The notes beneath the pieces were generated by a model, which was given only the letters and a program-made list of their open reading frames with translations, ran no database searches and was not told the origin of the DNA. Of a DNA stretch of 64,000 nt, positions 14,757 through 63,591 are shown in pieces. A program made the position numbers and the translations under genes. The stretch is taken from NCBI GenBank assembly GCA_051294905.1, contig CM119372.1, forward strand, positions 38,442,001 to 38,506,000. The letters are read 5' to 3'. This DNA is from Botryllus schlosseri. Lineage: Eukaryota. Numbering within the stretch: the stretch's first letter is position 1; each line of letters opens with the position of its first letter.

Positions 14757-15996
14757 GACTAGACGTAGGCTATGGTATTTCACTGCTTACTAAATTTCAT
14801 TTATGACCAATGCCTATTAGTAGTAATAGTGTGTGTGCTTGTTATCAGAATAGTGTGAAATGAGAAAATTAGTAAGTTCAATCTCTGTGTTAGTTGCTGA
14901 CTCATACACATGAGCAAGAGCTAAAATGGGAATTTTTATCTACATTTTGAATATACAGGATTAGATATATGTCATATTTGAATGATTCATACATATTAGG
15001 ATATTAGAGAGTTCATGTTATAAAAACTTATAAAATTTGACAAAGGGTGGATAGTTAGCAAATCATTCTTTCATGTTAATTGCATAGTGAATAATTCGAC
15101 CCCGCCGACCGCGTGTTTGAGACCTCTGCCCTAGGGCCTCGTCGGCAGAGCGCTTGCGCTCCGCCTTGAACTGATATTGTCTATGCTCTCCCTACCTTTT
15201 ACCAACAGTAATACTAACTGCACGAAGGTAAGAATTGAGTCGGCTACACGCAGCAGCTCTCGATGCGAAGTATCTCGCTGAGGCTTGATTATTCCCGATG
15301 AACGATCCGCAATTACCGCACAACCTTCCTCGGCGACGTCTGTACCAGCCAACTCCATATAGGATGCTGCGGCCGCTATAAGATATGTTGTACACAAACC
15401 ACTCACAAAGCAAGTTGATGAAAGACATTTAACATAAAAACGTCAGAAAAGAGAGAAGTAATTCATTTTGCGCACCACATGCATTCCATTGGCAGCATTT
15501 AAACGATTTCCTAATAAAATCATGAAAACAAATATCATACCAAGTTCATTTCATGGAATAATTTTCATAGCTCTTGGAAACAACGTTTTGACTGCTGTTG
15601 ACATTCAATGCAATATCCCGACACTGCGCATGTGTTTAAATTACCAATAAAAAATTTAGACAACAAAGCTTTAGCTGGGTCTTAAATATAGCATTGTGGA
15701 GATCTAGTTTCATCTTTGGCATTGGTTATTGTAGACGTTTGAGTTTGTAGATATTAGCTGACTATGCCAACATACCATTCTGCAACACTCTGGCAGGATT
15801 ACGTGGACTGAATTAATTTTCAATCCAACACTAGTCGGACTGGTAAATTTAGTTTGTTCAAATAGCAGAGCTAATAATGATGTCTCTAAAATGTTTGTTG
15901 GCATCATGATGTCTCACAATATCAGACAAAATGTGGATTGTAAGAAATTAATTATTAGTATGTATATTTGATCTGACATTAGAATCTCGTAATGTG

Positions 15997-18900
15997 AGTA
16001 GTTATTATGATCGGTCGTGAGCGGCTATGGGGTTCTTATGGGTGCGGCGGTGACTCGTATTGAAAACCCGGGGTGGTGACTCGTACTTTCAGACCCCCCC
16101 TCTCGGCCGTGATTCGTAATGGGTTCTTATGGACGCGGTCGTGATTCGTACTTTCGGGTATAGACTGCGGCGGTGACTCGTATTGAAAACTCGTGGTCGT
16201 GATTCGTACTTTCAGACCCCTCATGTGGTGGTGAATCGTATTGAAATACTCGTGTTGGTGAGTCGTAATTTTAGGTATAGGCTGCGTTGGTGAGTCGTAT
16301 TTTCGGGTATAGACTGCGGCAGCGCGGTGTTGAATATGTATCAAGTAAATAGTCACATGATTGATTCTTAGTTAATGTATATATTACAAATTATTATATA
16401 TGACCAATTTGAAGTAATCCCAACGTTTACGGTGAGCGCGACTTCGATATATCGTTATTCAAATGGATGCGGCGATGATTCGTACTTTCGGTTATAGACT
16501 GCGGGTGGTATGTCGTACTTTCAGCAAAAAGGGTGTGAAATAGTTTGCTAAATCTAGGAATCAGTCGCGTGGTGATGTTTTGGTATTTAGTTTACCACAG
16601 AGCCGGCTTAGACGGTGATTCGAATACCAACAATAGCCGCGTTCACATACTAACACTCCAAAAAGGTGTGAAATATTTGTAAAATCCTACGACCGCTCAC
16701 AAGATAACACATCAGAATAGCCATCTCTCGTGGTTTGATGTTACAAAGGTAGGAATGACGCACAAGTAATATTTTGGTAATTAGTTTGTCACAAGGCCGG
16801 CGTAGACGGCGCTTCCAATACCAACAATAGCCGCGTTCGCAAACTAACACTTCAAAAAGGTGTGAAATAGGTTGCAAATCCCGCGCTCGCTGACAAGATA
16901 ACAACTCAGACAGACACTCGCGATTTTTTGTTACATACATACCGATCGTTCACAATGTAATATTTTGGTAATCAGTATGTCACAGAACTGGATTTCGCCG
17001 GTAAGATTTAATAAGTAACGAATAACCGAACCGTCGCAGATGGTGATTCGAATACCGACAAATTCTCACTTATTTCTGATCCAACCCTAATCCTTTGCGA
17101 AGTTGGCGCTTTGTCAAAAAGGCGTGAAATAATTGTAAAACCCTACGTCGCTGACAGGATAATGCATCAGACATAGCGATCTAGTTATAGCACGGGTCGG
17201 AATCCATTCGCGAGATGTTCTATAGGTAAATTGAGGTAATCCGAAACGAAATATTTTGACTTGGTGTAGTGTGAATTGAAATAGGATTGACAAACATGAC
17301 TACCATCTTTCCAAGTACCATTTCGATATTATACGCACATTGATTTGAAACAAGTAATGAAAAACATTACAACTCTATTCACGACCCAGCTTTCCGTTTG
17401 TCAACGAGACATTTTAACATCTTACCATACTTAAAAGAATTATTCATAACATTAACCGGTGTTAAAAACATAGTTTTCACTTACTTGATTATATCACTAC
17501 AACTCGCAAACTTGAATTAATTCATCCTGGTTGTATTCATATGACCGATAATTTTTATTCAACTGTAAAGGTCGTTACTATTCTGTAAGACAAAGTATTT
17601 ACTCATCATTATATATACGACTTGACATAAACCTATTACATTTTGAGTATACGAGATTTGAATGTCCGAAAAATAACTGAGAATTAAATTATCACTAGTG
17701 AATCCGTATATTACAGCGTAAAAGATATTGGAATGTCAGCAACACTTTACGGTCATAGTTACAACCACAATAACTAATTTACCCGGCCAACACGTCATGA
17801 TCATTCCTGAAATCAACACAAACGCGGCCACTGACTTGAGTTAACCACAAAACGGCATCAAGTTTTTAATCCACTTGTAACTGACAGATTATTCGAATGC
17901 AGCGATGGAGAATATTATGGAGCTTGTCGATATTGTTACTTCAACAAATTATCGCTTACGCCGACTGCGAAAATTAATATCGAATGGTAATACTTGATCA
18001 CATATTTGTTGAACACAGACATGACGAAAAACATTACCGAGATTTTATAAACTAAACATATTACTTTTCCCATCTATCAATATCAGAATGCAAGTCAGCG
18101 AACTTTTTGTTAAATGTAAAATAGCACTTTTGGGAATCGGATTCGTTAGAGTCATACAAATTGTATTAAACCCAACACCAAAACAAAAGGACTTTTAAGT
18201 TCATTGAAATCAAATCATTCGTCTTCGACTTGCGCTTTATTAGATTGCACGCAACAATTCGTTACGAATGAGCTGTATCCAAAGTTAAGAAATCTTTGTG
18301 TCCACAGATATGGAAGATGAATATAGCTGACACAATCACGAATCGACGTTTCAGAGTATTTCACGGATGTAATAAACTTGTTAGTGTCGCCTATCTAAAA
18401 GTATGCATGCGTACGATTTCCATACCGACTGTTGCGATGTTTAGGATTCGCTTACAATGACCAAGAGTGAGGATTTAACATCAATGTCGTTACTGGCGGT
18501 ATTCACAACAGAGAATCGAAACATTACACAGTGTGAAAATATATCTTTGATATTAAAGCACTACCCCAAGTACACGATTAATACTCAACTCCGTTCACAC
18601 TTTCTATAGAACGCGCTAAATGTAAAATATCACGAGGTTACACTCTAAGACTTTGATCATTGCAAAAGTAAATTGGAATATGTTTGCCAGGTGCATTCAA
18701 TTCAGCTAGAAATGTCTAGTGCACAACAATCGTAATATCAAGGAAGTACTTGCTACACTGTAACTCAGTAAATGTGTTTTGCATTGTTGTTCATTTGTAG
18801 TATTGATTGAAATTGTTTTTTAACCTCAAAGAATAATTCCCGACATGAAACCAAGCCGCTGAAAGTCGTTACCAACACAAAGAAACAATTTGTACGATGT

Positions 18901-20607
18901 TTGCCAAATGTATCCTATAGTTAGGTTCACTAGAATTATTTGTGTAACTGTAACACATACAAATACACCGACAATGCAATCGAAAATTTTTCCGTTGTCA
19001 TCCGCTAAACTAAATGTCATCACAATACTCTGTCACTAAAAGACGTTACTTGTATGTGATTGAATTCCTAGCAACTCACTAAACCGAACTCCAAAGAAAT
19101 TTTACTCACTCGACGGATATGAAACAGCGTCCCTTAATCGGTCTATATCGTTTTTCTAAAGGCAAATCATATCCATCCAATAGAAAACAATTTTCACTAG
19201 CTTGGTAATGAAACCGAGGAGTGAGTCTTCATTCAATATTTTGTATGTGTCAAATACTTTGCAATAAACACACTGGAGTCGTCGAGCTTTACATCATCAG
19301 ACTGTAATCTGTAAATCAAGCTTACATCCGATTTGTAACTGTATTGTTTACCTAATCGAGTTGTATGCACAGTTTGATATTTTTGTCATTTAGTGATTGT
19401 TGAACATACCACATCGAAATACTACGTTGATCATAATTTCCATCATCGTGATAAGCGAAGTACATTTGTTTCGAATTCATAACAACCGACTTTTCTATGA
19501 CATGATAAATTATTGACAAGTTCTGCTTAGAAGATTGGTTGCATATCACGAAAAATAATATACCACTCATATTAATACTGTTACTCCATTCATCAGTATT
19601 TTTTTTCCGTTGTCGATTTTCAAACGAGTAAAATTTATTACTTGAGTTGTTCCGATTGCTATATTTAAATGTAAACTCACCCGTCTTTCAAAACCACAAC
19701 AAACAATGATAAAAAAAAGTATGCAATCAAACACAACAAGTTTTACTTTTGTAGGACACTAATTATTATTCCACGCATCTCATTTCATACCAAGTGTACA
19801 TGAAAGATATTCATGCCACACGAAAATATTCGATATATTCTCATGCTACGAACATACGCAATGATTAGTGACACTTTCAAACTGTTTCGATGTCACAAGA
19901 ACTTTATTGTCTGAACGGTTGTTCATGTATCTTAATATTCAAATAGTTCAACACAGAACTAGTACTAACAGAAACATCAGAGTTGTTTATACAAAAGTTT
20001 GTATGTGTGCAGTATGCGAATACCATGTGTAAGTCCAGCACAATTGCAGTATCCATCCGAGTTTAGTTAACACAAATTTATCACAACGGAGCCGCGTAAA
20101 CTTTCGTGAAAGAAAAGCATACTCACTTCCTGAGGGTTCTTTTAATGTCATAGCAATAAACCAGCTACTCCAACAAAAGAGTACATATGTTTTCTAGTAA
20201 CGACTCTCAAATCTTACACGCAGATCAATCTACTTTGCTAACGAAAAGTGCTGAGTCATCACATGATCATCCTCACAAATAACCAGTAGATGGAGCTGTA
20301 TTAAAATGTTCCTAACCCTTACCACGCCAGTGACAAATTTTACAATGGTTATGTTTAGTGAATCGAGTTGTTGTTCAGCGTCAAGTCTCCATGTTGAAGC
20401 ACACATTAAAACAGCGCAAATCCAAATAAAACCACGAATCTATTTTCATTTCCTCACAAACTACCACATACCGAAAAATAAATTTTCTTCCCCAGACACA
20501 TACTTATAACCAATCGCTTTCATTATACACACAGCCGCATAAAAGTATTTACTTTCTACAACAGAGACATTCCGATGTAGTCAAGAAATATTTTTATTAA
20601 TCAAAAT
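15997..20607 (+). repeat. Left arm of giant inverted repeat
   Basis: Collinear reverse complement of 22655-27258. Mirrored ORF-track entries: 16650-/26315+, 19352-/23689+, 20306+/22753-. Confidence 0.97.
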
Positions 20608-20667
20608 TATTAATCGGCTATGATAATGTCTGTGGATCGAAGGCTTACTCCCTCGATGTTTGTATAC

Positions 20668-21095
20668 CAGAGATGAGCGGATTTGAAATTTCTATGTCCT
20701 AATCCAATCCAAATCCGAACCTTCAAATCCAAATCCAATTCCTAATCCATAACTTTTTCATATTCAAGTCCATGTCCAATCCTAATCTGATTTCAACTGG
20801 AAATTCAGAAAAAATACTAATTTATGCAATGGAGGGATTCGGAAATTTTCTTTCACAACCAACGATTCACTTGATTCAAGATAACTTAGTAACCATAAGT
20901 ACATTAATAACTGATCTGAATAAAGTTTGTCGCCATTCGCCACACGACATTTCAATCTCCCAGAAAATAGGTAAATCCAATCCAAATCCTAATCCGTTCT
21001 GAAAAAAAATGTCTGATCCAAATCCAATCCAAATCCGTCAAAATTTCACAAATCCTGTTTTTTCAAAACCTAATCCTAATCCATGCTCATCTCTG
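20668..21095. mobile_element. hAT MITE with AATCC repeats inserted in the Polinton-like spacer
   Basis: TIR CAGAGATGAGC / GCTCATCTCTG, perfect TSD TTGTATAC. Confidence 0.92.
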
Positions 21096-21719
21096 TTGTA
21101 TACCAACACATTTCATGCAATGTCATACAACCCCCTCTATTTACGCGATCAATCGCGACGTATGTGTGGATGGTGCATTGGTATTTTTCGTGGAAACACA
21201 GGGTGTAACATGTTTACTTGAATATTGGTCGTTGGGTCATGATTGAATATCCGGATCCGGTTACATATACTTCCTCTCGGTTTCCGATTTCAAACTGAAT
21301 GTAGCGACATACATTGAGCAAAAAAGCCACAATATAGTAAACATGCGAGAGAAAACTCAACCCGGAATTGTTATCGCGATGGGTGACATAAATCCAACCG
21401 TTTTCCGAACACCGTTATCCACGTACCAACCAGGTGCCAAAATCGAGGGGGTGTTTAATTCAGACATTTTGACTCTGGACAATCCAAAGCACGAACCCGG
21501 ACATCACGTACATATCGAAACCTATTGTCCAATTTCCAAAACACACATTTCGTTGTACAAGAGCATATTGCATGTGGGTAACCGATGATTTTGATGGGAT
21601 GAACCAGCACAAGTAAATATGCGATTACACAAATGTATCGGAGTCGTTGTTGGTGTATATTTTGTCACTACCCGTTGTAACAATATACAAAAATATCAAA
21701 TTGTCGGGTGTGGTTGTCA

Positions 21720-22290
21720 GTACGAAAATGGTATTGTTTACCGTGGAAAAGATAGATTTCCAAGTGAAAACGGTATTGGTACTCAGGTAAATGATAGTTT
21801 TCCAAACGAAAAGGGTTTGTTACCCAGGGAGAAAATACAATTCCAAAAGAAAATGATTAGTTACTCTAGGTGAAAATAAATTTCCAAGTGAAAATGGTGT
21901 TCTGACTCGGGGTAAAAGTATATTTCCAAGTGAAAATGGTATTGTTACTATAGGAAAAGATGGACCGCCAAGTGAAAATGTATTGTTACTCTGGGTAAAC
22001 GGCAGATCTCCAAAGGAAAATGATATTTTTAATCAGGTAAACGATGGACCGCTAAGTGAAAATGTCTTGTTGCTCAAGGAAAATATAGATTGCCAAGTGA
22101 AAATGGTTTGCTACTCAGGGAAAAATATATTTCCAAACGAAAAGGTTATTGCTACTATAGGAAAAGGTAGATCGCCAAGTGAAATGTATTGGCACTCTAG
22201 GTAAACCAGAGATGTCCAAAGGACAATGATATTTTTACTCAGGTAACGGTGGACCTCCAAGTGAAAGTGGTAATTTTACATACGTAAACG
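21720..22290. repeat. Degenerate tandem array of about 42 bp, about 13 copies
   Basis: A CCAAGTGAAAATGGTATTGTTACTC-like core recurs every 41-43 bp. Confidence 0.85.
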
Positions 22291-22654
22291 TCGTGAGTTC
22301 AGTGTCATTGGTCTTGTTAAACGTAGTTGTCGAGTTTTACAATATACTTGTCGTGAGTATACAATTACGAAGGGAGAGAATGAAATTGCTATAATGAGTG
22401 TCAGAAGGTTGTTGTATGTAGATTTGACAGTAACCCTATCATTCACATATGACAATCACAATCATGACCGTGAATACATGTAACTAACTTGATCGGGCTC
22501 GATCAATGCAAAAGAGATGATTCGTTTTAAAACCGTAACCACATGTAGGTTGATGCGATTTCTATCTCCTTGCATTCAGTCGTGTCGTGTCCATTTTAAT
22601 ACGAGACCCACAGGTATGACATACACACACTAACACCGTGAACAGAAGTTGATG

Positions 22655-25600
22655 ATTTTGATTAATAAAAATATTTCTTGACTACATCGGAATGTCTATG
22701 TTGTAGAAAGTAAATACTTTTATGCGGCTGTGTGTATAATGAAAGCGATTGGTTACAAGTATGTGTCTGGGAAAGAAAATTTATTTTTCGGTATGTGGTA
22801 GTTTGTGAGGAAATGAAAATAGATTCGTGGTTTTAATTGGATTTGCGCTGTTTTAATGTGTGCGTCAACATGGAGACTTGACGCTGAACAACAACTCGAT
22901 TCACCAAACATAACCATTGTAAAATTTGTCACTGGCGTGCAAAGGGTTAGGAACATTTTAATACAGCTCCATCTACTGGTTATTTGTGAGGATGATCATG
23001 TGATGACTCAGCACTTTTCGTTAGCAAAGTAGATTGATCTGCGTGTAAGATTTGAGAGTCGTTACTAGAAAACATATGTACTCTTTTGTTGGAGTAGCTG
23101 GTTTATTGCTATGACATTGACAGAACCCTCAGGAAGTGAGTATGCTTTTCTTTCACGAAAGTATACGCGGCTCCGTTGTCATAAATTTGTGTTAACTAAA
23201 CTAGGATTGATACTGCAATTGTGCTGGACTTACACATGGTATTCGCATACTGCACACATACAAACTTTTGTATAAACAACTCTGATGTTTCTGTTAGTAC
23301 TAGTTCTGTGTTGAACTATTTGAATATTAAGATACATGAACAACCGTTCAGACAATAAAGTTCTTGTGACATCGAAACAGTTTGAAAGTGTCACTAATCA
23401 TTGCGTATGTTCGTAGCATGAGAATATATCGAATATTTTCGTGTGGTATGAATATCTTTCATATACACTTGGTATGAAATGAGATGCGTGGAATAATAAT
23501 TAGTGTCCTACAAAAGTAAAACTTGTTGTGTTTGATTGCATACTTTTTTATCATTGTTTGTTGTGGTTTTGAAAGACGGGTGAGTTTACATTTAAATATA
23601 GTAAGCAGAACAACTCAAGTAATAAATTTTACTCGTTTGAAAATCGACAACGGAAAAAAAATACTGATGAATGGAGTAACAGTATTATATGAGTGGTATA
23701 TTATTTTTCGTGATATGCAACCAATCTTCTAAGCAGAACTTGTCAATAATTTATCATGTCATAGAAAAGTCGGTTGTTATGAATTCGAAACAAATGTACT
23801 TCGCTTATCACGATGATGGAAATTATGATCAACGTAGTATATCGAAGTGGTATGTTCAACAATCACCAAATGACAAAAATATCAAACTGTGCATACAACT
23901 CGATTAGGTAAACAATACAGTTACAAATCGGATGTAAGCTTGATTTACAGATTACAGTCTGATGATGTAAAGCTCGACCACGCCAGTGTGTTTATTGCAA
24001 AGTGTTTGACACATACAAAATATTGAATGAAGACTCACTCCTCGGTTTCATTACCAAGCTAGTAAAAATTGTTTTCTATTGGATGGATATGATTTGCCTT
24101 TAGAAAAACGATATAGACCGATTAAGCGACGCTGTTTCATATCCGTCGAGTGAGCAAAATTTCTTTGGAGTTCGGTTTAGTGAGTTGCTAGGAATTCAAT
24201 CACATACAAGTAACGTCTTTTAGTGACAGAGTATTGTGATGACATTTACTTAAGCGAATGACAACGGAAAAATGTTCGATTGCATTGTCGGTGTATGTGT
24301 TACAGTTACACAAATAATTCTAGTACACCTAACTATAGGATACATTTGGCAAACATCGTACAAATTGTTTCTTTGTGCTGGTAACGACTTTCAGCGGCTT
24401 GGTTTCATGTCGGGAATTATTATTTGAGGGTTAAAAAAACAATTTCAATCAATACTACAAATGAACAACATTGCAAAACACGTTTAGTGAGTTACAGTGT
24501 GGCAAGTACTTCCTTGATATTACGATTGTTGTGCACTAGACATTTCTAGCTGAATTGAATGCACCTGGCAAACATATTCCAATTTACTTTTGTAATGATC
24601 AAAGTCTTAGAGTGCAACCTCGTGATATTTTACATTTAGCGCGTTCTATAGAAAGCGTGAACGGAGTTGAGTATTAATCGTGTACTTGGGGTAGGGCTTT
24701 GATATCAAAGATATATTTTCACACTGTGTAATGTTTCGATTCTCTGTTGTGAATACCGCCAGTAACGACATTGATGTTAAATCCTCACTCTTGGTCATTG
24801 TAAGCGAATCCAAAACATCGCAACAGTCGGTATGGAAATCGTACGCATGCATACTTTTAGATAGGCGACACTAACAAGTTTATTACAACCGTGAAATACT
24901 CTGAAACGTCGATTCGTGATTGTGTTAGCTATATTCATCTTCCATATCTGTGGACACAAAGATTTCTTAACTTTGGTTACAGCTCATTCGTAACGGAATG
25001 TTGCGTGCAATCTAATAAAGCCCAAGTCGAAGACGAATGATTTGATTTCAATGAACTTAAAAGTCCTTTTGTTTTGGTGTTGGGCTTAATACAATTTGTA
25101 TGACTCTAACGAATCCGATTCCCAAAAGTGCTATGTTACATTTAACAAAAAGTTTCCTGACTTGCATTCTGATATTGATAGATGTGAAAAGTAATATGAC
25201 TAGTTTATAAAATCTCGGTAATGTTTTTCGTCATGTCTGTGTTCAACAAATATGTGATCAAGTATTACCATTCGATATTAATTTTCGCAGTCGGCGTAAG
25301 CGATAATTTGTTGAAGTAACAATATCGACGAGTTCAATAATATTCTCCATCGATGCATTCGAATAATCTGTCAGTTACAAGTGGATTAAAAACTTGATGC
25401 CGTTTTGTGGTTAACTCAAGTCAGTGGCCGCGTTTGTGTTGATTTCAGGAATGATCATGACGTGTTGGCCGGGTAAATTAGTTAATGTTGTTATAACTAT
25501 GACCGTAAAGAGTTGCTGACATTCCAATATCTTTTACGCTGTAATATACGGATTCACTTGTGATAATTTAATTCTCAGTTATTGTTCAGACATTCAAATC

Positions 25601-27258
25601 TCGTATACTCAAAATGTAATAGGTTTATGTCAAGTCGTATATGTACTGATTAGTAAATACTTTGTCTTACAGAATAGTAACGACCTTTACAGTTGAATAA
25701 AAATTATCGGTCATATGAATACAACCAGGATGAATTAATTCAAGTTTGCGAGTTGTAGTGATATAATCAAGTAAGTGAAAACTATATTTTTAACACCGGT
25801 TAATGTTATGAATAATTCTTTTGAGTATGGTAATATGTTAAAATGTCTCTTTGACAAACGGAAAGCTGGGTCGTGAATCGAGTTGTAATGTTTTTCATTA
25901 CTTGTTTCAAATCAATTTGCGTATAATATCGAAATGGTACTTGGAAAGATGGTAGTCATGTTTGTCAATCCTATTTCAATTCACACTACACCAAGTCAAA
26001 ATATTTCGTTTCGCATTACCTCAATTTACGTATAGAACATCTCGCGAATGGATTCCGACCCGTGCTATAACTAGATCGCTATGTCTGATGCATTATCCTG
26101 TCAGCGACGTAGGGTTTTACAATTATTTCACGCCATTTTGAAGAAGCGCCAACTTCGCAAAGGATTAGGGTTGGATCAGAAATAAGTGAGAATTTGTCGG
26201 TATTCGAATCACCATCTGCGACGGTTCGGTTATTCGTTACTTATTAAATCTTACCGGCGAAATCCAGTTCTGTGACATACTGATTACCAAAATATTACAT
26301 TGTGAACGATCGGTATGTATGTAACAGAAAATCGCAAGTGTCTGTCTGAGGTGTTATCTTGTCAGCGAGCGCGGGATTTGCAACCTATTTCACACCTTTT
26401 TGAAGTGTTAGTTTGCGAACGCGGCTATTGTTGGTATTGGAAGCGCCGTCTACGCCGGCCTTGTGACAAACTAATTACCAAAATATTACTTGTGCGTCAT
26501 TCCTACCTTTGTAACATCAAACCACGAGAGATGGCTATTCTGATGTTTTATCTTGTGAGCGGTCGTAGGATTTTACAAATATTTCACACCTTTTTGGAGT
26601 GTTAGTATGTGAACGCGGCTATTGTTGGTATTCGAATCACCGTCTACGCCGGCTCTGTGGTAAACTAATTACCAAAACATCACCACGCGACTGATTCCTA
26701 GATTTAGCAAACTATTTCAAACCCTTTTTGCTGAAAGTACGACATACCACCCACAGTCTATAACCGAAAGTACGAATCATCGCCGCATCCATAAGAATAA
26801 CGATATATCGAAGTCGCACTCACCGTAAACGTTGGGATTACTTCAAATTGGTCATATATATTAATTTGTAATATACACATTAACTAAGAATCAATCACGT
26901 GAATATTTACTTGATACATATTCAGCACCGCGCCGCCGCAGTCTATACCCGAAAATACGACTCACCAACGCAGCCTATACCTGAAATTACGACTCACCAA
27001 CACGAGTATTTCAATACGATTCACCACCACATGAGGGGTCTGGAAGTACGAATCACCAGTACGAGTTTTCAATACGAGTCACCGCCGCAGTCTATACCCG
27101 AAAGTACGAATCACGACCGCGTCCATAAGAACCCATTATGAATCACGGCCGAGAGGGGGGGTCTGAAAGTACGAGTCACCACCCCGGGTTTTCAATACGA
27201 GTCACCGCCGCACCCATAAGAACCCCATAGCCGCTCACGACAGATCATAATAACTACT
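22655..27258 (-). repeat. Right arm of giant inverted repeat
   Basis: Reverse complement of the left arm; the match ends internally at ATTTTGATTAATAAAAATATTTCTTGACTAC. Confidence 0.97.
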
Positions 27259-27489
27259 AATGTGCAATCTGTTGATCTCAAGTCATATCCAACGAGCAAC
27301 AATTGAATCAATATCGACACCTTTTTCAGTCGCATACCGAAAACACAAGTCGTTTTAATATGAATGCAACAGAGTTCAATGTACTATATCATAACGCCGA
27401 GGCGGGAAGTCTATTCTTGTGGACTTACGCCGTGGATCAGTCATCCAAAAATCGAGTAGCGGTATGTTTACTATCGCCGCCAATTACAC

Positions 27490-47218: not shown

Positions 47219-50200
47219 TAGGGTTGTTCAAAATTTGGAAAATGTTTGGAATTCTGCGTGTCCATCGCTTATTCTGTAGATTATTGTTAAAAAACAATAA
47301 TGGGCTTGAAAGAAGCTCGCAGGAAAGCCGCTAACATTTGTCTAAATGCGTTTGAAAGTCGTTGTTGAAGAGTGGGCGGGCAATCACGAAACCACGGTTC
47401 TTGATTGGGTAATCGGCTAAGCTTCACTGATTACTGCAACAGCTGACTCGGATTCGGGAGCTTGGCTTTACTAAATTGAAAGTCTGTTTTGCTGAGGTAG
47501 AGTCTGTTAGTAGCGGTTGTGGTTCTGTACAAGCGCGTTGTGGGTTGATGAGTCATTAGTAGTACTGTAACACGTGTTCTTTGAATGCTTCAGAGTCGAT
47601 AGCAGTAGTTTATGATTTGGAGCAACAATAGTGCAGTCATGGCAGAGGCAAAACGGCGAAAGATTGCACACATGCCGCAGCGAAGAACAAGATCCAAATC
47701 TGAGCAGTACTTGGTCGGATATACTTGCGATTACATCTGTGGCTCGAGATTACCTACTATACGAGAAGTATAATGAGTTACTTGCTGCATCTGAAAGAGC
47801 ATTGTCCTCAGTCAACCCCTACTCATGAACTATATGTACTGTGGTGGTGGATGATGTAATGACAGTGTGGAAAATGGCGAGAATTGCGACAATGCAGAAA
47901 TCACATGTGCTGCGATCACTTCAAAACCTGCACGAAAGATGGCGTGATCTGAAAAAGAATCCGAAACAGGAAAGTGATCCCAAGGGTATGAGGAGAAAAT
48001 TCACTGATAATTTGGACAAGCTGTGGGATATTGGAAGTAGAGATGCCATAACAACAATAGAAAATGACATTTATCTATCACATGAAAGAAAGCTTGAAGA
48101 CATTGCATTTTATGAAGATCAACGGAAATCTTGCCAGTCAATAATGTTGGGAAGAGACAAAATTCTGGCTAAAGACCTCAAAAAGAAAACAGCAGCCATT
48201 GCAGATCAAACTGTTGAAAACGTTTCACACGACTCAAGTTCTGACTATGTTGTTTTAGCATCTTCGTCATCTTCAAAAGAGGGTGACAGTTTGAGTTCAA
48301 GTTCTGACTATGATGCTGATGTTGGACTTGGCACCTCGACCCAATCCATTAAACTGATGGCACCTAAAAATATTATGAAAAATACGCATGTGTCCCAAGC
48401 TCTGGATCGATTGCAAGTAACTGACAACGATGCCGATGGGAGCATTTATTAAGGCTTGTGGAGGAGATATAGCCATGTTCTCCCTGTCAAGATCTTCAAC
48501 GAAGAGAGTCAGGGAAACAAATCGCCTGAAAATATCTCGGGACATTTTGGAAAAATTTGCCGAAAATAGACCACAGCATGTTGCCATTCATTGGGATGGA
48601 AAGCTCACAGAGGATAGATTAGGAAATCGATATGAAGCTTTGTCAATTGTTCTATCTTGTCAACCTCAATACTCGGAAGGAAAACTATTTGGAATTCAGA
48701 AGATACAAAATGCGGCAGGTCAGACACAAGCTGAAACTACTTTCGACATAATTAAAAAGTGGGATACAAGATGCTGTAACAGCTTTGGTTTTTGACACCA
48801 CAGCAAGCAACAGCGGCTGGAAGAAGGGTGCAGCGAAGATCCTTGAGGACCTTCTAGGAAAGAAGGTTTTTTACCATGTGTATGAGCTAATAGTCAAAGA
48901 CGTCTGGAAATGTTTATTTGGAAAAGCAACAACCGGACCAGAGAACACATGGTTTGCCCACCTTAAGAAGAGCTGGAGCAGTCTTGACAGAAAACAGCAA
49001 TTCAAGACTCTGACTATTCCTATATGCTTTAAAGAACGAGCAGCAATGACAATTGAGAACTTCAAGCTACTACTCGCCAGAAAAGATTTCTTTACACGGG
49101 ATGACTACAAACAATGTGTGACTAATGCTCTTGCTCTTCTCGGTGCAGATGGAGATATACATCATCACAAAACTGGTGCAACACACCATGCAAGGTGGAT
49201 GGGCACAATTCTGTATGCTCAGGAGATGTTCATGTGGGCTGGTCAGTTACATTACAAATCTGAAGAAGTGGAACTGCTGCATTGCTTCAATTTATTTTTA
49301 GTTCTCTTTTATATCTCTGCCTGGGTTGCTTCCAGCATCGGTCGTGATGCAGCCGGTAATGACTTGAGATTCATCCAGGACATGTTGAGTTACAAGGAAC
49401 ATGATGAACAAGTTTCCAAAGCTGCTTCACAGAAGCTTTTAAAGCACGACTGGTATATCGTGGAGGACACTACAAGGACACTACTTTGTCTGATTTTATT
49501 GGGCCACAGTCGTGGTACATATTTGATGTTTTTGAATGCTCTGGGGCGTGGCTAGCTCAACCGGTTGATGTTTGGCACTTATCAGATTCCTACACCAGAA
49601 TGAGCTCCTACATCAGTTCTGTCAAAGTCGTTAATGATGCCGCAGAACGAGGTGTAAAGCTAAGCACAGACTATGCTGCAATCTTGTCTGACAATGAACA
49701 ACAAAGAGACAGTCTGCTTCAAGCTGTGGAACAGCATAGGAAGACAGTTGGAGACAGCAGGAAGTCAACTCTAATCAAAAGTCTGTAATCTGCAACTTGT
49801 GCCTAACAATGCAACACTGATCTGCAACGTACTTTTTTAATGTCTTTTCACTCTTTTGTAAATAGTGCTTTTCGCCTTCATTCAATTGTGAATAAAAAGT
49901 GTAATATGCGTTCGTTTATGGGTGAGACGTCGACTAGTCATAACAAGTACTGCTGAGATGTTGAATCCTGGTGGTAAATTTTTGAGTTTCACTCACTGTC
50001 AGTAACTTTTGAAAAGGTTGAAGGTAGCAAGATGCATGCATCTAGTTTATTCGTATCTCAACTAGCGAGAGCACCTGTGCAATACATAGCACTTATACAC
50101 ATTCTGCAGGTAGATATTAACTTAGGCGGTTGCATGTTGTACTATGGACTCTTGATGACAACATTAACAAAGGCAATATATCATGTCTGTAATGACACCA

Positions 50201-50507
50201 ACAGAAACGACTGCAGAACAGCACGCAAAAATCGTTACCAGCAGTGTTCACAAAGTCGGTCTTTCAGCCAATCATTAGCTTATTATTACCGGCTTCAACC
50301 AATCAGGATTAATGGCTTCTCTTTGCCCGCCCACTTCATCGATTCCCCGCCCACTCGCCGACGGCTACTTTCAAACGCATTTAGACAAATATTACCGGCT
50401 TTCCTGCGAGCTTCTTTCTAGCCCATTATTGTTTTTTAACAATAATCTACAGAATAAGCGATGGACACGCAGAATTCCAAACATTTTCCAAATTTTGAAC
50501 AACCCTA
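47219..50507 (+). mobile_element. hATm-like autonomous-type transposon with TIRs of about 140-160 bp
   Basis: TAGGGTTGTTCAAAATTTGG.. near-perfect long TIRs, flanking direct repeat TGTGCCT, decayed transposase inside. Confidence 0.85.
47639..49788 (+). pseudogene. hATm-like transposase with several frameshifts and deletions
   Basis: Motifs across successive frames: GSRLPTIREV, HWDGKL, VFDTTASNSG..GA, RDDYK, GATHHARWM, VVNDAAERGVKL, VEQHRK. The expected CxHH motif appears deleted at KVFYHVYEL. Confidence 0.8.
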
Positions 50508-58004: not shown

Positions 58005-59186
58005 CAGTGGTCGGGAACCTTATTTGTCCGAAGAGCCATATTGGCCCTATTTTTCCATCCCAACTCCGAAAGAGCCATACATTCCAATCAACTGTTACGT
58101 CGCAATTGAAAATTCGTGACGTCATGGTAGCACTAATTCGAACTGCCTACATGGGATTCCTCGTGTGCGCCAGTAAAAACTGATATTTATTGTTCGAAAA
58201 TAAAGCTCGAAAAGAGAGGTAAGACGCAGATGGGCCAAGCCTCACCAATGATAACGCAATTCATCGTAAATAGCTTAGAATTTATTATAACTGAACTGAT
58301 GTTAATGGGACTGTCACACTGATCCGAAAATCTAAATACTCATCGACTTCTCAATTCTCAAAGTATTCGGCGGTAACATATCGTTGCGCTACACGCATAT
58401 ATTTTTATCGCCGATACTACGCAGAACGTGGAACATGGATAGCTATGGCTTTGTTTGTAATTCGAGTTTGTAATTGTTATTGTCACATCCACAACAGTTC
58501 AGTTCGCGCCGTAGATCAGGAAGACAATGTGAATTTGAAAATAGCGTTTTGAAATGAGCGTCGCCATGTGTGCTATGTTCTTTGTTTCAACGTATCGCAC
58601 AATTCAAGATTTCGATTCGGATACATCGCCAGGAGGTAGTCACCAGTCATTTTGATGGCGTGGGTTCGAGCCCGTCGCTGCCATCACGCCAGGATACAGA
58701 GCCTGTACTCTCTGTTAACGACGAAACGATGTCGACACACGATAAACGTTTAGTACTGAAAAGACATCCTAACAGCACGAGTAGTCGTTGTATAAGGCAA
58801 CTAAATAAACGGCGCAATCAGAGAACTAATCAATAGCCTTTCAATTAACAGGAGCCGAGATTCGGCTCCAGTATAACACAAACAATACTGGCGCAAAGAA
58901 TTCGCGAGTGATATTGGCCGCCGATGGGACAGTAACTTAAATTTGATTATTTTGAAGAGAGGGGGTCCGAGCCCCTGAACCGGAAGAAGGCATTGTCTTT
59001 ACTTCTCAAAGACATGTTAATAGTAATACTGCCACGAGAATAATTATTTTGGCCGTGATGAAAATTTACCAACAAGTCGCTGCAATATTGATCAATTCAG
59101 TGTAAAAATAAATATTTGGCAAAGAGCCATATCTTATACCCAAAAGAGCCATATATGGCTCGCGAGCCATAGGTTCCCGACCACTG
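58005..59186. mobile_element. hAT-Charlie non-autonomous element (AAGAGCCAT repeats)
   Basis: CAGTGGTCGGGAACCT / AGGTTCCCGACCACTG, TSD GTCTGAAC / GTCTAAAC. Confidence 0.9.
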
Positions 59187-59706
59187 GTCTAAACCCTTCG
59201 AGACCCATACTTTGACAAGCACTGGTGTAACCGACGGAATGTCCAGCTTCAAATAGGCGATTGTTGAGATTTCATGCTCAACACAATAAATATGACTAAG
59301 CTGAAAATGTTCGGGACACCAATTAGTATTATTTTGACATTACCAAATTTTGGCACCCTGTATACCAGAGGTCAGGAACCTAGGGCTCGCGAGACAGGGC
59401 TCTTTTGGTTATAAGGTATTTAGATGTGGCTCTTCGGCATATTTTTTAATTTTCTACTCACTATATCAATATTGCAAGCAACTTGTTATCAAATTTCCAT
59501 AACGGCTAGAATAAATATTATCAACGCAGCATAAACATGTCCTTGAGAGGTCAAGACATCGGGGTATAAAGGGTTAGGGCAGCGGTTCCCAACCTGTGGG
59601 TCGCGACCCCAACTGGGGTAGCCTGACAATTTGCCTGGGGTCACCTGAGGCCTTCTGAAAAGTTTAGAATTTCATTAGGTTAGAAATTTAGAAAGTTAAC
59701 TCTTAA

Positions 59707-60308
59707 AGGTCAACTGCATCTTCATGACAACTTTGCGGAATCATGTTCAGAATTTTTTTTCATGACGAAATTACCGACTTTCCGTGTTTCAACTCAATCG
59801 GAAATTGCCGTAATTTTGACTGAAAGTTCCAATATTGGCATGTTTACAGAAAAGGCAGAATGTGCATTGTGACGTCAAGTGAATGACACATATTATCAAC
59901 ACCGGTCACAGCGGCTGTTTGTGTTCTCGCAGTTTTTATTCTAGTCAGTAATGGCCGAGGTTTCCATTGTAACGGATTTGCCAAGTGATATTGAGACTGA
60001 GTCTGAGTACTTCGATGTCGAATGTGAGTATCGTTTTTGCACGTACTTACAAAATTACCGTTAAAATGCCGGATTGGTTCAGGTGTTGATGCGCTCGATC
60101 CCACGTCAGTGGAAGCCCTTGCAGCTTCATAATAATGATTGGTCATGAACAGCCTAGCTTGCTCAGCGCAAGCCGCTCGTCGAGACTACATGAAATACAG
60201 TTGTATATATGGTATGTAGTGTAATAGCTCGTTTCAGTCATGCATCTTGATAAGTTTGTGCTGTAAGTGGGTTCCGAGAGTTACTGACAGAAATAAAGTG
60301 TATCACAG
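59707..60308 (+). mobile_element. Left-end fragment of the same Kolobok family inside the SPIN-like element
   Basis: TTAA plus AGGTCAACTGCATCTT and about 600 bp collinear with 37875-38481, ending abruptly at GTGTATCACAG. Confidence 0.92.
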
Positions 60309-60414
60309 TTGATAGCCTAGGCAAGCCAGTGTAGGCTTACTATTGAATTCCCGGCATCAACCATAGGTAGCCTACGATAGCTAGCTAGCTATTTTGTAAA
60401 ATTTCAGATTTCCC

Positions 60415-62223
60415 ATGATGAATCGAGAGACAAGTATTAGGCCTAGGAAAAGAAAATATTGTGAGGAATTTTTGAAGTATGGATTTACTTTCATAGTTGA
60501 CGCAGGAGTTGAACAGCCACAATGTGTCATTTGCAACACAATTATGTCAGCCGAATCGATGAAGCCCAACAAAATGAAACGCCATTTTGACGCTAAGCAT
60601 CCAAACTTTGCGGGCAAGGATGTCCAGTATTTTAAGAACAAAGCTGATTGTGTCAAAGAAAACAGGCTGGATTCTGGCGGCAAGTACCAACAGCAAAATG
60701 TGGCAGCCATTGAAGCTTCATATTTGGTGGCTCTCAGAATCGCCAAAGCCAAGAAACCTTACACCATTGCCGAGGAGTTGCTGCTGCCAGCAACCAAAGA
60801 CGTTGTTCGAGTTATGCTTGGAGCTGAATATGTTAACAAACTGAATACAATATCCTTGTCTAATAACACCGTCAGTAGAAGAATAGACGACATGTCTGCT
60901 GATATTATGGAGCAAGTTATCCAGGAAATGAAATCAGCTCCACTTGGAATATTTAGTATCCAGCTTGATGAATCAACAGATGTGGCAAACTGTTCTCAGT
61001 TACTGGTTTACGTGAGGTACATTTATGAAGGTGATTTCAAAGATGAGTTTCTTTTTTGCAAACCACTTGAAACGACAACTACTGCACGCGATGTCTTTGA
61101 CACAGTTGGATCATTTCTGCAAAATCATGGCATTCCTTGGGAAAATGTTTGTGGTGTTTGCACAGACGGTGCTCCAGCAATGCTGGGATGTAGGTCTGGA
61201 TTTCAACGTTTGGTAATCAATGCATCACCGAAAGCCATCGGAACTCACTGTATGATTCATCGACAAGTGTTAGCAACGAAGACTTTGCCACAAGAATTCC
61301 AAGATACAATGAAAAGCGTTGTAAGTGTCGTGAATTTTGTAAAAGCTAGTGCTTTAAACAGCCGCCTATTTTCAAAAGTTTGCAGTGAGTTGGATGCATC
61401 CAATAATGTTCTGTTATTTCACACTAGTGTGAGATGGTTGTCCAGAGGCAAAGTTTTGAAACGTGTTTTTGATCTTCGTGATGAATTGAAAACATTTTTT
61501 AATCAAAAATCTAAACCACAGTTTGAAGCACTTTTCGGCGACAAAAACCAAGTTCACAAAATTGCTTACTTGGTTGACATCTTTGCAATCTTAAATGAGT
61601 TAAATTTGTCTCTCCAAGGACCAAATGCAACATGCCTAGATTTGTCAGAAAAGATCCGAGCATTCAAGTTGAAACTTCAACTTTGGCAAAAAAAATTGGA
61701 TGAAAATAGAATTTACATGTTGCCGAACTTATCTGCTTTCTTTGAGGAAAATGATATTGAACAGGAAACAATGAATAGAACAATACTTTCTGTCAAAGAA
61801 CACTTCAAAATTCTTGAAGAAGAAATTTCAAGATATTTTCCTAATTTACCTGACACACCGTTTGCACTTGCTAGAAGCCCATTCACCATCAGAGTTGAAG
61901 ATGTTCCTGAGAATGCACAAGAGGAGTTCATTGAACTCATTACCAGTGATGCAGCAAAAACTGATTTTTCTTCATTGTCAGTTACCAAATTTTGGATCAA
62001 GAGTTTGCAGTCATATCCCGTTCTGTCTGAGATCGCATTGCGCCTGATTCTTCCTTTTCCAACAACATACCTTTGTGAAACAGGCTTTTCAAGCTTGTTG
62101 GTTATCAAATCTAAATACAGGAGCAGACTTGATGCAGAAGATGATCTGCGTTGTGCTCTTGCAAAGACTGCTCCAAGGATTTCAGATCTGGCTAAAAAGA
62201 AGCAAGCACAGCCTTCTCACTGA
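60415..62223 (+). CDS. Intact hAT Buster-group transposase, SPIN-like, 602 aa
   Basis: BED finger (PQCVIC..RHFDAKH), QLDESTD, CTDGAPAM, HCMIHR, VRWLSRG, YLCETGFS, terminal QPSH; no stops. Confidence 0.95.
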   Translation: MMNRETSIRPRKRKYCEEFLKYGFTFIVDAGVEQPQCVICNTIMSAESMKPNKMKRHFDAKHPNFAGKDVQYFKNKADCVKENRLDSGGKYQQQNVAAIEASYLVALRIAKAKKPYTIAEELLLPATKDVVRVMLGAEYVNKLNTISLSNNTVSRRIDDMSADIMEQVIQEMKSAPLGIFSIQLDESTDVANCSQLLVYVRYIYEGDFKDEFLFCKPLETTTTARDVFDTVGSFLQNHGIPWENVCGVCTDGAPAMLGCRSGFQRLVINASPKAIGTHCMIHRQVLATKTLPQEFQDTMKSVVSVVNFVKASALNSRLFSKVCSELDASNNVLLFHTSVRWLSRGKVLKRVFDLRDELKTFFNQKSKPQFEALFGDKNQVHKIAYLVDIFAILNELNLSLQGPNATCLDLSEKIRAFKLKLQLWQKKLDENRIYMLPNLSAFFEENDIEQETMNRTILSVKEHFKILEEEISRYFPNLPDTPFALARSPFTIRVEDVPENAQEEFIELITSDAAKTDFSSLSVTKFWIKSLQSYPVLSEIALRLILPFPTTYLCETGFSSLLVIKSKYRSRLDAEDDLRCALAKTAPRISDLAKKKQAQPSH

Positions 62224-63591
62224 ACAAATTGTTGTGTTGATAAGTTGATTTGTTATGTTGTTTATTTATTTAGAAGTCAAATTTAATATATAGCCTACTA
62301 GTTGCCTACTAGTTAGCTCCAAAAGTGCAGTGAAGAAGGATCAACTCAACTAATTTTATCCTTGGGGTCACCGCAACTTGGCAAATGTTATAAAAGGGTC
62401 ACGGCACCAAAAAGGTTGGGAACCGCTGGGTTAGGGGCTCATACCCACCTTTTCCAACATCGCCAGATTTCAGTTGTTATCGCGCCGGCGACCACTGCCA
62501 CTCGCGAATTCGATCTTGACGCCACCGATCTGCTGGAAATATTTGATTGCACGATACCTCAATTGATCAAAGAGAATGGCAGACATGGCGACACTTGTAG
62601 GACAATGCATTTTCAAATACACATTGTCATCCTGAAAACGGAGAAATAAACTACTGTGGAAGTGACATTCACAATTACAAATTCAAAATTAAAACGACGT
62701 CATCTCATAGTTATCCACGTTCTTGATTGGTAAGTAGCTTTCTAGCCCCCCGTAAAAGTGTAGGTGTGTAGCGCAACGTTAAGTTAGGCCGAATACTTTA
62801 GAAGTCGTTCAATATTTAGATTTTCGAAATCAACGCGACTATCACATTGGATTAATATCTAATTCTAAGCTATTTACGATGAGCTGTACTATCACAAGGG
62901 AGGCTTTGCCCATCTGTGGTTCATATGTGCTTTACATCTCATTTTGCGCTTCATTTTCGAACAACCAATATGAAAATCCCTTTATTTTAGTAATAAAAGT
63001 GTTCAAAATCTAGTCAGTCATAAACACCGACTAAAAATACCAATAATCATTGAAGGCTTCACGATTTTCCTTCACTCATCCCTGAGGACACGAGAGGAAC
63101 TGCCTCACTTGCCTCCCCTAACCCCACGTCAGTGACGTATCATACCCTGCAGTGGGTATGTACTGCTGTCGTGACCATTGACCATGTTTGGCTCTACATA
63201 CGCATGTGAGGAATGAAATATGGCGCACACTGCGAATTGTGACGTAATATCTGATTGACATGTATGGCTCTTTGGGAGTTATAATTGAAAATATTGGACT
63301 AATATGTCTCTTCGGTCCAAGAAGGTTCCAGAACACTGCTGTACACGTAAGGTTGCCAACTCCGGGTTTAAGAGGCTATCGTTTTGTTGTTAGATTGGGT
63401 TAGTGATCAGCTAATGTGATAAGGTAGCGGCAACCACACTTTGATTCCAGATAGAGGCCAATAAATACTAAACCATCCTGTTGACGGGTAAAGGTCAAAG
63501 CTTTTATTGTGATAGTCACTAAGGATGGTGTGAATCCCTGAAAGGTTCTGGTTCGCATGAATGCAAACCTTTTACTTACCAAGGTTTTGTG

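Follow-up and report, generated by a model that had tools for sequence, protein, structure and literature searches.

Does an intact hAT transposon in a sea squirt belong to the SPIN elements of tetrapod genomes, or stand at their source? The question is raised by a locus in a stretch of 64,000 nucleotides from Botryllus schlosseri (assembly GCA_051294905.1, contig CM119372.1, positions 38,442,001 to 38,506,000 of the forward strand; the whole stretch is called the window). An earlier note, made from the letters alone, had described the element as a young, possibly active relative of SPIN (SPace INvaders, reportedly of Pace et al. 2008) that bore on the source of the tetrapod transfers. The element was compared with its relatives at the protein level, with its copies in the same genome and with sequencing runs of other organisms. 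The results make it highly probable that it is an autonomous-type Buster hAT element from a marine sister lineage of tetrapod SPIN, and that a recent transfer linking botryllids and Clavelina was followed by a small burst and by decay.

Relationship of the transposase to SPIN

The best 120 of 1,571 matches of a protein search were listed, and the matches named below are from this list. Clavelina lepadiformis was found at 98% identity, proteins from ENA, JGI and Logan at 80-91%, and frogs at 81-82%; squamates, toads, slow loris, bats and rodents (among the last a CHCH-domain fusion that we take to be a domesticated SPIN gene) followed at 69-78%, and the next lineage was at most 57% identical. 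Excerpts of PMC3157835, PMC5381603 and PMC11614815 list anole, squamates, bats and opossum among the animals that carry SPIN.

A tree was built from the window protein and 50 chosen proteins (51 rows). The window protein, Clavelina and nine further proteins formed a clade of 12 rows (support 100/97), which was sister to a tetrapod clade of 24 rows (99/99); the joint clade of 36 rows was supported at 100/100. The tetrapod clade was made up of three frog proteins, one further protein and a star-like group of 20 (100/99). Two points weigh against this placement: TcBuster was not among the rows of the tree, and 'classical SPIN' was represented by a proxy, namely the star-like group of 20, chosen by the names of SPIN hosts. 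Against the majority sequence of these 20 proteins the window transposase was 80.6% identical, compared with 84.8-96.3% for the members of the group, 93.2% for the ENA protein P0007 and 87-88% for the three frog proteins. An approximately unbiased (AU) test on 22 rows rejected a clade of the window protein, Clavelina and 10 star rows (p=1.9e-5; the tested group was defined after the tree had been seen).

It is therefore very improbable that the element represents classical SPIN or directly gave rise to the tetrapod invasions, and this reading is already largely refuted by the identities and the AU test, even though the element shares with SPIN the 100/100 clade, a length of 602 amino acids, end letters that the earlier note had likened to those of SPIN and three long peptides, all located in the open reading frame (ORF) and also present in the majority of the 20 SPIN-host proteins. 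Since the element lies outside the tetrapod clade, it is not the direct donor of tetrapod SPIN, and the source role raised in the earlier note falls away. Its description as SPIN-like stands in the broad sense, the element being closer to SPIN than the next lineages are, and fails in the sense of membership in classical SPIN. Judged by these comparisons, the kinship with SPIN is real, the window element would work in the manner of SPIN and is a sister family that lies outside strict, proxy-defined SPIN, and its lineage is the nearest invertebrate-side relative of SPIN in this protein search.

The sister relation could also reflect vertical descent from the tunicate-vertebrate ancestor, with only the link between ascidians being horizontal. 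The topology at the deep node speaks for this, as it agrees with host phylogeny (tunicates sister to tetrapods). At 80-82% identity, however, the transposase would have to be as conserved as HSP70 (78.6% between host and crocodile), and no fish or bird was among the named matches listed at 70% or more; vertical descent is considered unlikely.

The preferred placement as a marine sister lineage leaves a set of likenesses and differences. As described, SPIN likewise has a transposase of about 600 amino acids and a record of repeated horizontal transfer. The window element differs in its protein identity of about 80%, its marine ascidian host, its unbroken frames and a nested fragment in its 5' region (described below). 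Among the frogs (Rana, Aquarana, Rhinophrynus and Ranitomeya) several full-length SPIN-lineage frames are annotated as ZBED5-like (P0010, P0141, P0143, P0006 and P0023). Those of Rana temporaria, Aquarana catesbeiana and Rhinophrynus dorsalis were 80.6-82.4% identical to the window transposase and fell on the tetrapod side of the clade, where the ranid and Rhinophrynus frames branched basally to the SPIN star.

Near-identical elements in two ascidian orders

The host genome encodes a tunicate-type cellulose synthase (CesA), which grouped with Styela (100/100) inside Stolidobranchia (96/96) in a tree of 13 rows with no named aplousobranch. An intronless HSP70 was 97.5% identical to that of Botryllus schlosseri and 82.0% to that of Styela clava. 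The host is thus a Botryllus-like styelid ascidian, in agreement with the earlier reading of the genome as that of an invertebrate. A mitochondrial genome was sought with COX1, and no match was obtained.

The transposase was 98.3% identical to the Clavelina lepadiformis protein P0121, with 10 of 602 residues differing. Five Clavelina accession records, on contigs of 14-26 Mb, fell in the cluster; these proteins (XP_076814258.1/CAK8676887.1 and others, 98.1-98.3% identical) belong to the same element family and are annotated as 'ZBED5-like' host genes, not as a SPIN-like transposon. Clavelina belongs to Aplousobranchia and Botryllus to Stolidobranchia, another order. The two orders split 389 +/- 32 million years ago, and protein similarity between Ciona and Botryllus is 79.5% (both from an excerpt of PMC5899321). 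Near identity across orders about 390 million years apart argues for a very recent horizontal transfer.

Words sampled from the element were sought in sequencing runs, and 19 runs of four organisms (A to D) contained 0.78-0.88 of them. Three of these runs, and one raw RNA run, were aligned against the window. Run X17 (organism D) showed the same left terminal inverted repeat (TIR) joined to another flank and to a different 5' interior, and it left the immediate flanks (59268-59535 and 62484-63000) and the greater part of the nested piece uncovered. Of the 10 sites at which P0121 and the window protein differ, the letters listed for the run agreed with P0121 at all 10. The pieces of X17 imply 12-13 differences from the window in 1,806 coding bases, with at most 3 in 386 synonymous sites; 11 differences were listed, one of them synonymous, and one further difference is probably a synonymous change private to the window, at 61860. 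Measured against the host majority, X17 has six replacements and no more than one synonymous change. The repeats of the host also occur in organisms B and C, which carry the ORF with 11 (B) and 8 (C) differing letters; organism B has two residues in common with organism D. A fish metagenome run (X20) contained a share of 0.17 of the words and was not counted as evidence.

Contamination, or mixed samples of co-occurring ascidians, would be another source of such identity: Botryllus and Clavelina are both colonial fouling species, and the DNA comparison came from runs with coded identities. This explanation is hardly credible, since both species have their copies on contigs of chromosome scale, the host-specific nested piece occurs in 10 of 10 examined host copies and is missing from the organism D contig with its own flank and interior, and each lineage has derived residues of its own, as judged by the outgroup P0134.

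The case for transfer between botryllids and Clavelina has its weak sides. Both lineages carry derived residues, so that transfer in either direction would fit; the DNA comparison rests on one run (X17) and on the listed differences only; and no Clavelina orthologue that could serve as a host-gene control was present among 35 CesA matches or the 120 listed HSP70 matches. As to the horizontal transfer foreseen in the earlier note, the best-supported case is this one, between two ascidian orders, which the note had not anticipated.

Copies in the host genome and activity

The genome searched comprised 495.5 Mb in 219 contigs. The right end gave 11 matches at 10 places (all 11 candidates were scored), so the family is small, with about 10 copies. 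The transposase region is present in six copies at a protein identity of at least 96%, and the 602-codon frame is unbroken in two of them, the window copy and one on contig C5. Between start codon and right end, each of the six has 8-20 private substitutions relative to their majority (9 in 2,014 bases for the window copy, as befits the young element that had been proposed). Pairs of copies differ at 17-35 sites, and only four variants are shared. This star pattern points to a short past burst, not to ongoing copying. Four private replacements were found in the window frame (I32V, K82E, H116Y and L380V); residue 116 is H in 106 and Y in 10 of 120 homologs.

Whether the element is still transposing in this genome was weighed from the same data. 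In its favour are the intact frame, TIRs and target-site duplication (TSD) with all invariant columns kept, the second intact frame on C5, and two runs of organism A, guessed to be RNA, that contain 0.87-0.88 of the sampled words. Against it, no two copies are identical; the window frame has its four private replacements, including H116Y; and other sequence has displaced part of the native 5' region, where the promoter probably lay. When about 3% of a raw single-cell RNA run of organism A was read, the depth over the ORF was 0-2.3, on both strands, and zero in 6 of 13 bins. Current transposition is thus doubtful, and the possible activity suggested by the earlier note found no backing in this genome. 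Judged by its letters, the window copy may still be mobilisable.

Some joints in runs X13 and X16 bypass the element; their reading as insertion polymorphism was rejected, since paralogs of the target repeat can yield them. Another Buster family of the same genome (43% identical to the window protein, with a 618-aa open frame) gave 15 matches of equal score on 9 contigs; its copy L046 was 99.94-100% identical to four other copies over about 3.3 kb. From these identities, that family makes a far stronger candidate for present-day activity here.

Structure of the element

The coordinates of the element and its parts are collected in Table 1. The 16-nt TIRs are 100% complementary and the 8-bp TSD stands at both flanks, as the earlier note had it; the transposase frame is likewise without a stop. 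Eight copies in the genome with both ends are bounded by the same TIR, and 7 of the 8 have an exact 8-bp TSD. The nnnTAnnn target preference is a Buster feature and was seen here, TA occupying TSD positions 4-5 in 8 of 8 copies. For an empty-site check, 7 paralogs of the target repeat were picked from 40 scored; all 7 aligned across the junction with one 8-mer (4 exact, 3 with one mismatch). As these paralogs span the junction with a single 8-mer, the TSD is real, and the TIR/TSD structure is not due to chance. The GGGGTCAC subterminal repeats are putative transposase-binding repeats, and a candidate splice acceptor (TTTCAG, ending at 60407) was read in the 5' leader.

Table 1. Coordinates of the element, its parts and its target in the window.
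Feature	Position	Strand	Basis or remark
hAT element	59580..62428		2,849 bp; window of Botryllus schlosseri contig CM119372.1
Left target-site duplication GGTTAGGG, nnnTAnnn type	59572..59579	+	Sequence; single copy in paralogous empty sites
Left TIR, 16 bp	59580..59595	+	Same TIR in other genome copies and in organism D with another flank
Native left subterminal region	59596..59702	+	Common to organism D up to 59706
Subterminal motif GGGGTCAC	59637		Recurs in right end at 62364; GGGTCAC at 62396
Captured 606-bp fragment of unrelated TTAA transposon	59703..60308	+	98.35% to element bases 1-606 (locus L060)
Native 5' leader	60309..60414	+	Organism D with 113 extra bases near 60385
602-aa Buster-type hAT transposase, SPIN sister lineage	60415..62223	+	ORF, domains, tree, predicted fold
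3' untranslated and right subterminal region	62224..62412	+	11 matches at 10 genome places
Right TIR, 16 bp	62413..62428	-	
Right target-site duplication GGTTAGGG	62429..62436	+	
Older host repeat of about 1.1 kb, split by the insertion (target, outside the element)	59361..63345	.	73-80% to paralogs

A fragment that the earlier note did not mention lies in the 5' region (59703-60308) and corresponds to bases 1-606 of another element, which is abundant and unrelated. That donor is 2.5-2.8 kb long, with 15-bp TIRs between TTAA sites and both ends present at 2 of 3 loci; no ORF of 150 aa or more was found inside its 2.5-2.8-kb copies. A TTAA TSD and short TIRs starting with purines are features of Kolobok elements; both were observed here, with both ends at the same 2 of 3 loci, and the donor is presumably Kolobok-like. 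The nested piece was present, at least in part, in 10 of 10 examined host copies, two of which have a longer TTAA part joined at another breakpoint, which suggests one insertion followed by separate deletions. In organism D (run X17), 360 other bases take the place of 599 here (joint 59706-60306). Because 606 bp are foreign, the length of 2,849 bp is partly an accident of this genome, and the match in length to SPIN, used as an argument in the earlier note, loses its weight; the version in organism D has other sequence there.

Two host derivatives carry further inserts (L016 at 621-1711 and L005 at 570-990, in element coordinates) that partly match each other; from these inserts the host element family appears to capture other repeats often. 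Five copies of the TTAA element lie on contig C18 (582841-637022) at an even spacing of 13,395 bp, as a tandem array. Directly to the left of the target repeat (window 58005-59191) is a hAT-type family of miniature inverted-repeat elements with many copies at 83-97%. Elsewhere in the window, a foldback-like element of 11.3 kb occupies 15997-27258; its arms, about 4.35 kb long, align in three pieces at 97-98% around a 2-kb spacer with a tandem array of 41-42 bp, and the 6-bp direct repeat AATGTG flanks it at 15991-15996 and 27259-27264. At 47219-50507, inverted arms of 167 nt surround two broken frames that resemble transposases (47829-48452 and 48752-49555).

Domains and predicted fold of the transposase

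The BED residues (C37, C40, H57 and H62), the triad D185/D251/E555, the C279xxH282 motif and W341 are all present, as the earlier note had stated for the BED, DDE and CxxH residues, and they were invariant in 47 of 47 aligned proteins. A hAT dimerisation domain (PF05699) was detected by Pfam at 23.5 bits (cut-off 21.4); a BED-like zf-C2H2_12 match stayed below its cut-off, one of two families that did so. The protein matches carry FAM200/ZBED5 Pfam families, and an Atlas search returned generic FAM200/ZBED5 clusters only.

A sequence search of the PDB with the transposase gave no match. The AlphaFold model of the protein had a pLDDT (predicted local distance difference test) of 87, and its 10 best PDB fold matches were all Hermes (4d1q, 2bw3 and others; E 2e-9 to 7e-8), a transposase of the Ac family with 15-18% identity to the window protein. 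Short TIRs, an 8-bp TSD, the domain residues, a C-terminal dimerisation domain and a Hermes-like predicted fold together give the element the features of a hAT transposon. In size, TIR length and ORF length it matches described Buster elements: TcBuster, AeBuster, AnBT and the rebuilt SPINon are 2.5-3.0 kb long, with 14-16-bp TIRs, an 8-bp TSD and a transposase of 597-677 aa. Activity was measured for these elements (all from an excerpt of PMC12637253), to which the window element is likened by description only.

Wider searches and previous reports

None of 9 candidates on viral contigs was confirmed, and no viral vector was seen among them. In JGI metagenomes 2 of 125 candidates were confirmed, both partial. 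One JGI metagenome contig (L069, 90-957) holds an internally deleted SPIN-lineage element that retains its two ends and a transposase tail sharing 80% identity with that of the window. Buster transposases of the skate Rhinoraja longicauda (P0211) and the shrimp Palaemon carinicauda (P0101) are neighbours in a cluster of 102 members, on branches of 0.033 and 0.065; judged from these branches, the pair is likely to represent another marine transfer.

No report of a SPIN or Buster transfer in tunicates, ascidians, Botryllus or Clavelina was found in a search that left subscription papers outside, notably Guan et al. 2022. That work is reportedly a survey of Buster transfer and may already list tunicate members. 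The element is unmentioned in the portion seen of the text of the Clavelina genome paper, and SPIN terms are absent from PMC4298943, PMC3899998 and bioRxiv 2020.05.07.082677. SPIN-like hATs have been noted in a snail (excerpt of PMC5440852) and, in a source likewise seen in part, in Rhodnius.

Discussion

Past mobility in this genome is shown by the copies, including those with the chimeric left end. For the mechanism, the steps were taken from established hAT biology such as that of Hermes. The transposase would use its BED and DNA-binding domains to bind both the TIRs and the subterminal repeats, and an oligomeric DDE transposase would excise the element with its D185/D251/E555 RNase-H centre via hairpins on the flanks; insertion at nnnTAnnn sites would then produce the 8-bp duplications. 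As to history, one element would have entered both the botryllid and the Clavelina lineage in the very recent past, either straight from one to the other or by way of a third host. In the genome studied, the founder would have received a TTAA transposon at 123 bp from the left end, shed the greater part of it through deletions and still given rise, in a small burst, to the roughly 10 copies that would now be accumulating private mutations.

SPIN serves as a classic example of horizontal transfer in vertebrates; most of the copies known are old, and an active form was obtained by reconstruction (excerpt of PMC12637253). Its transfers are dated to 15-46 million years (excerpt of PMC3157835), and that between botryllids and Clavelina is far more recent. 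With a marine sister family whose natural frames are unbroken, the lineage now takes in tunicates, and a reservoir in aquatic animals is suggested. The same excerpt of PMC12637253 tempers the significance: it describes the transfer of Busters between phyla as common, and several naturally active ones are already in use as tools.

A synonymous distance near zero over about 390 million years of host divergence speaks for a very young transfer, and since both animals can be sampled and cultured, its route and early dynamics become testable. We tentatively suggest, as a possibility short of an even chance, that a living pool of SPIN-lineage elements, still crossing species and order boundaries, exists in sea squirts and other aquatic invertebrates, and that tetrapod SPIN descends from a member of this pool that arrived via amphibians, in which the basal relatives are found. 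If so, the element of Botryllus and Clavelina would be a naturally active SPIN-type transposase, and a jump between species could be studied in two culturable animals.

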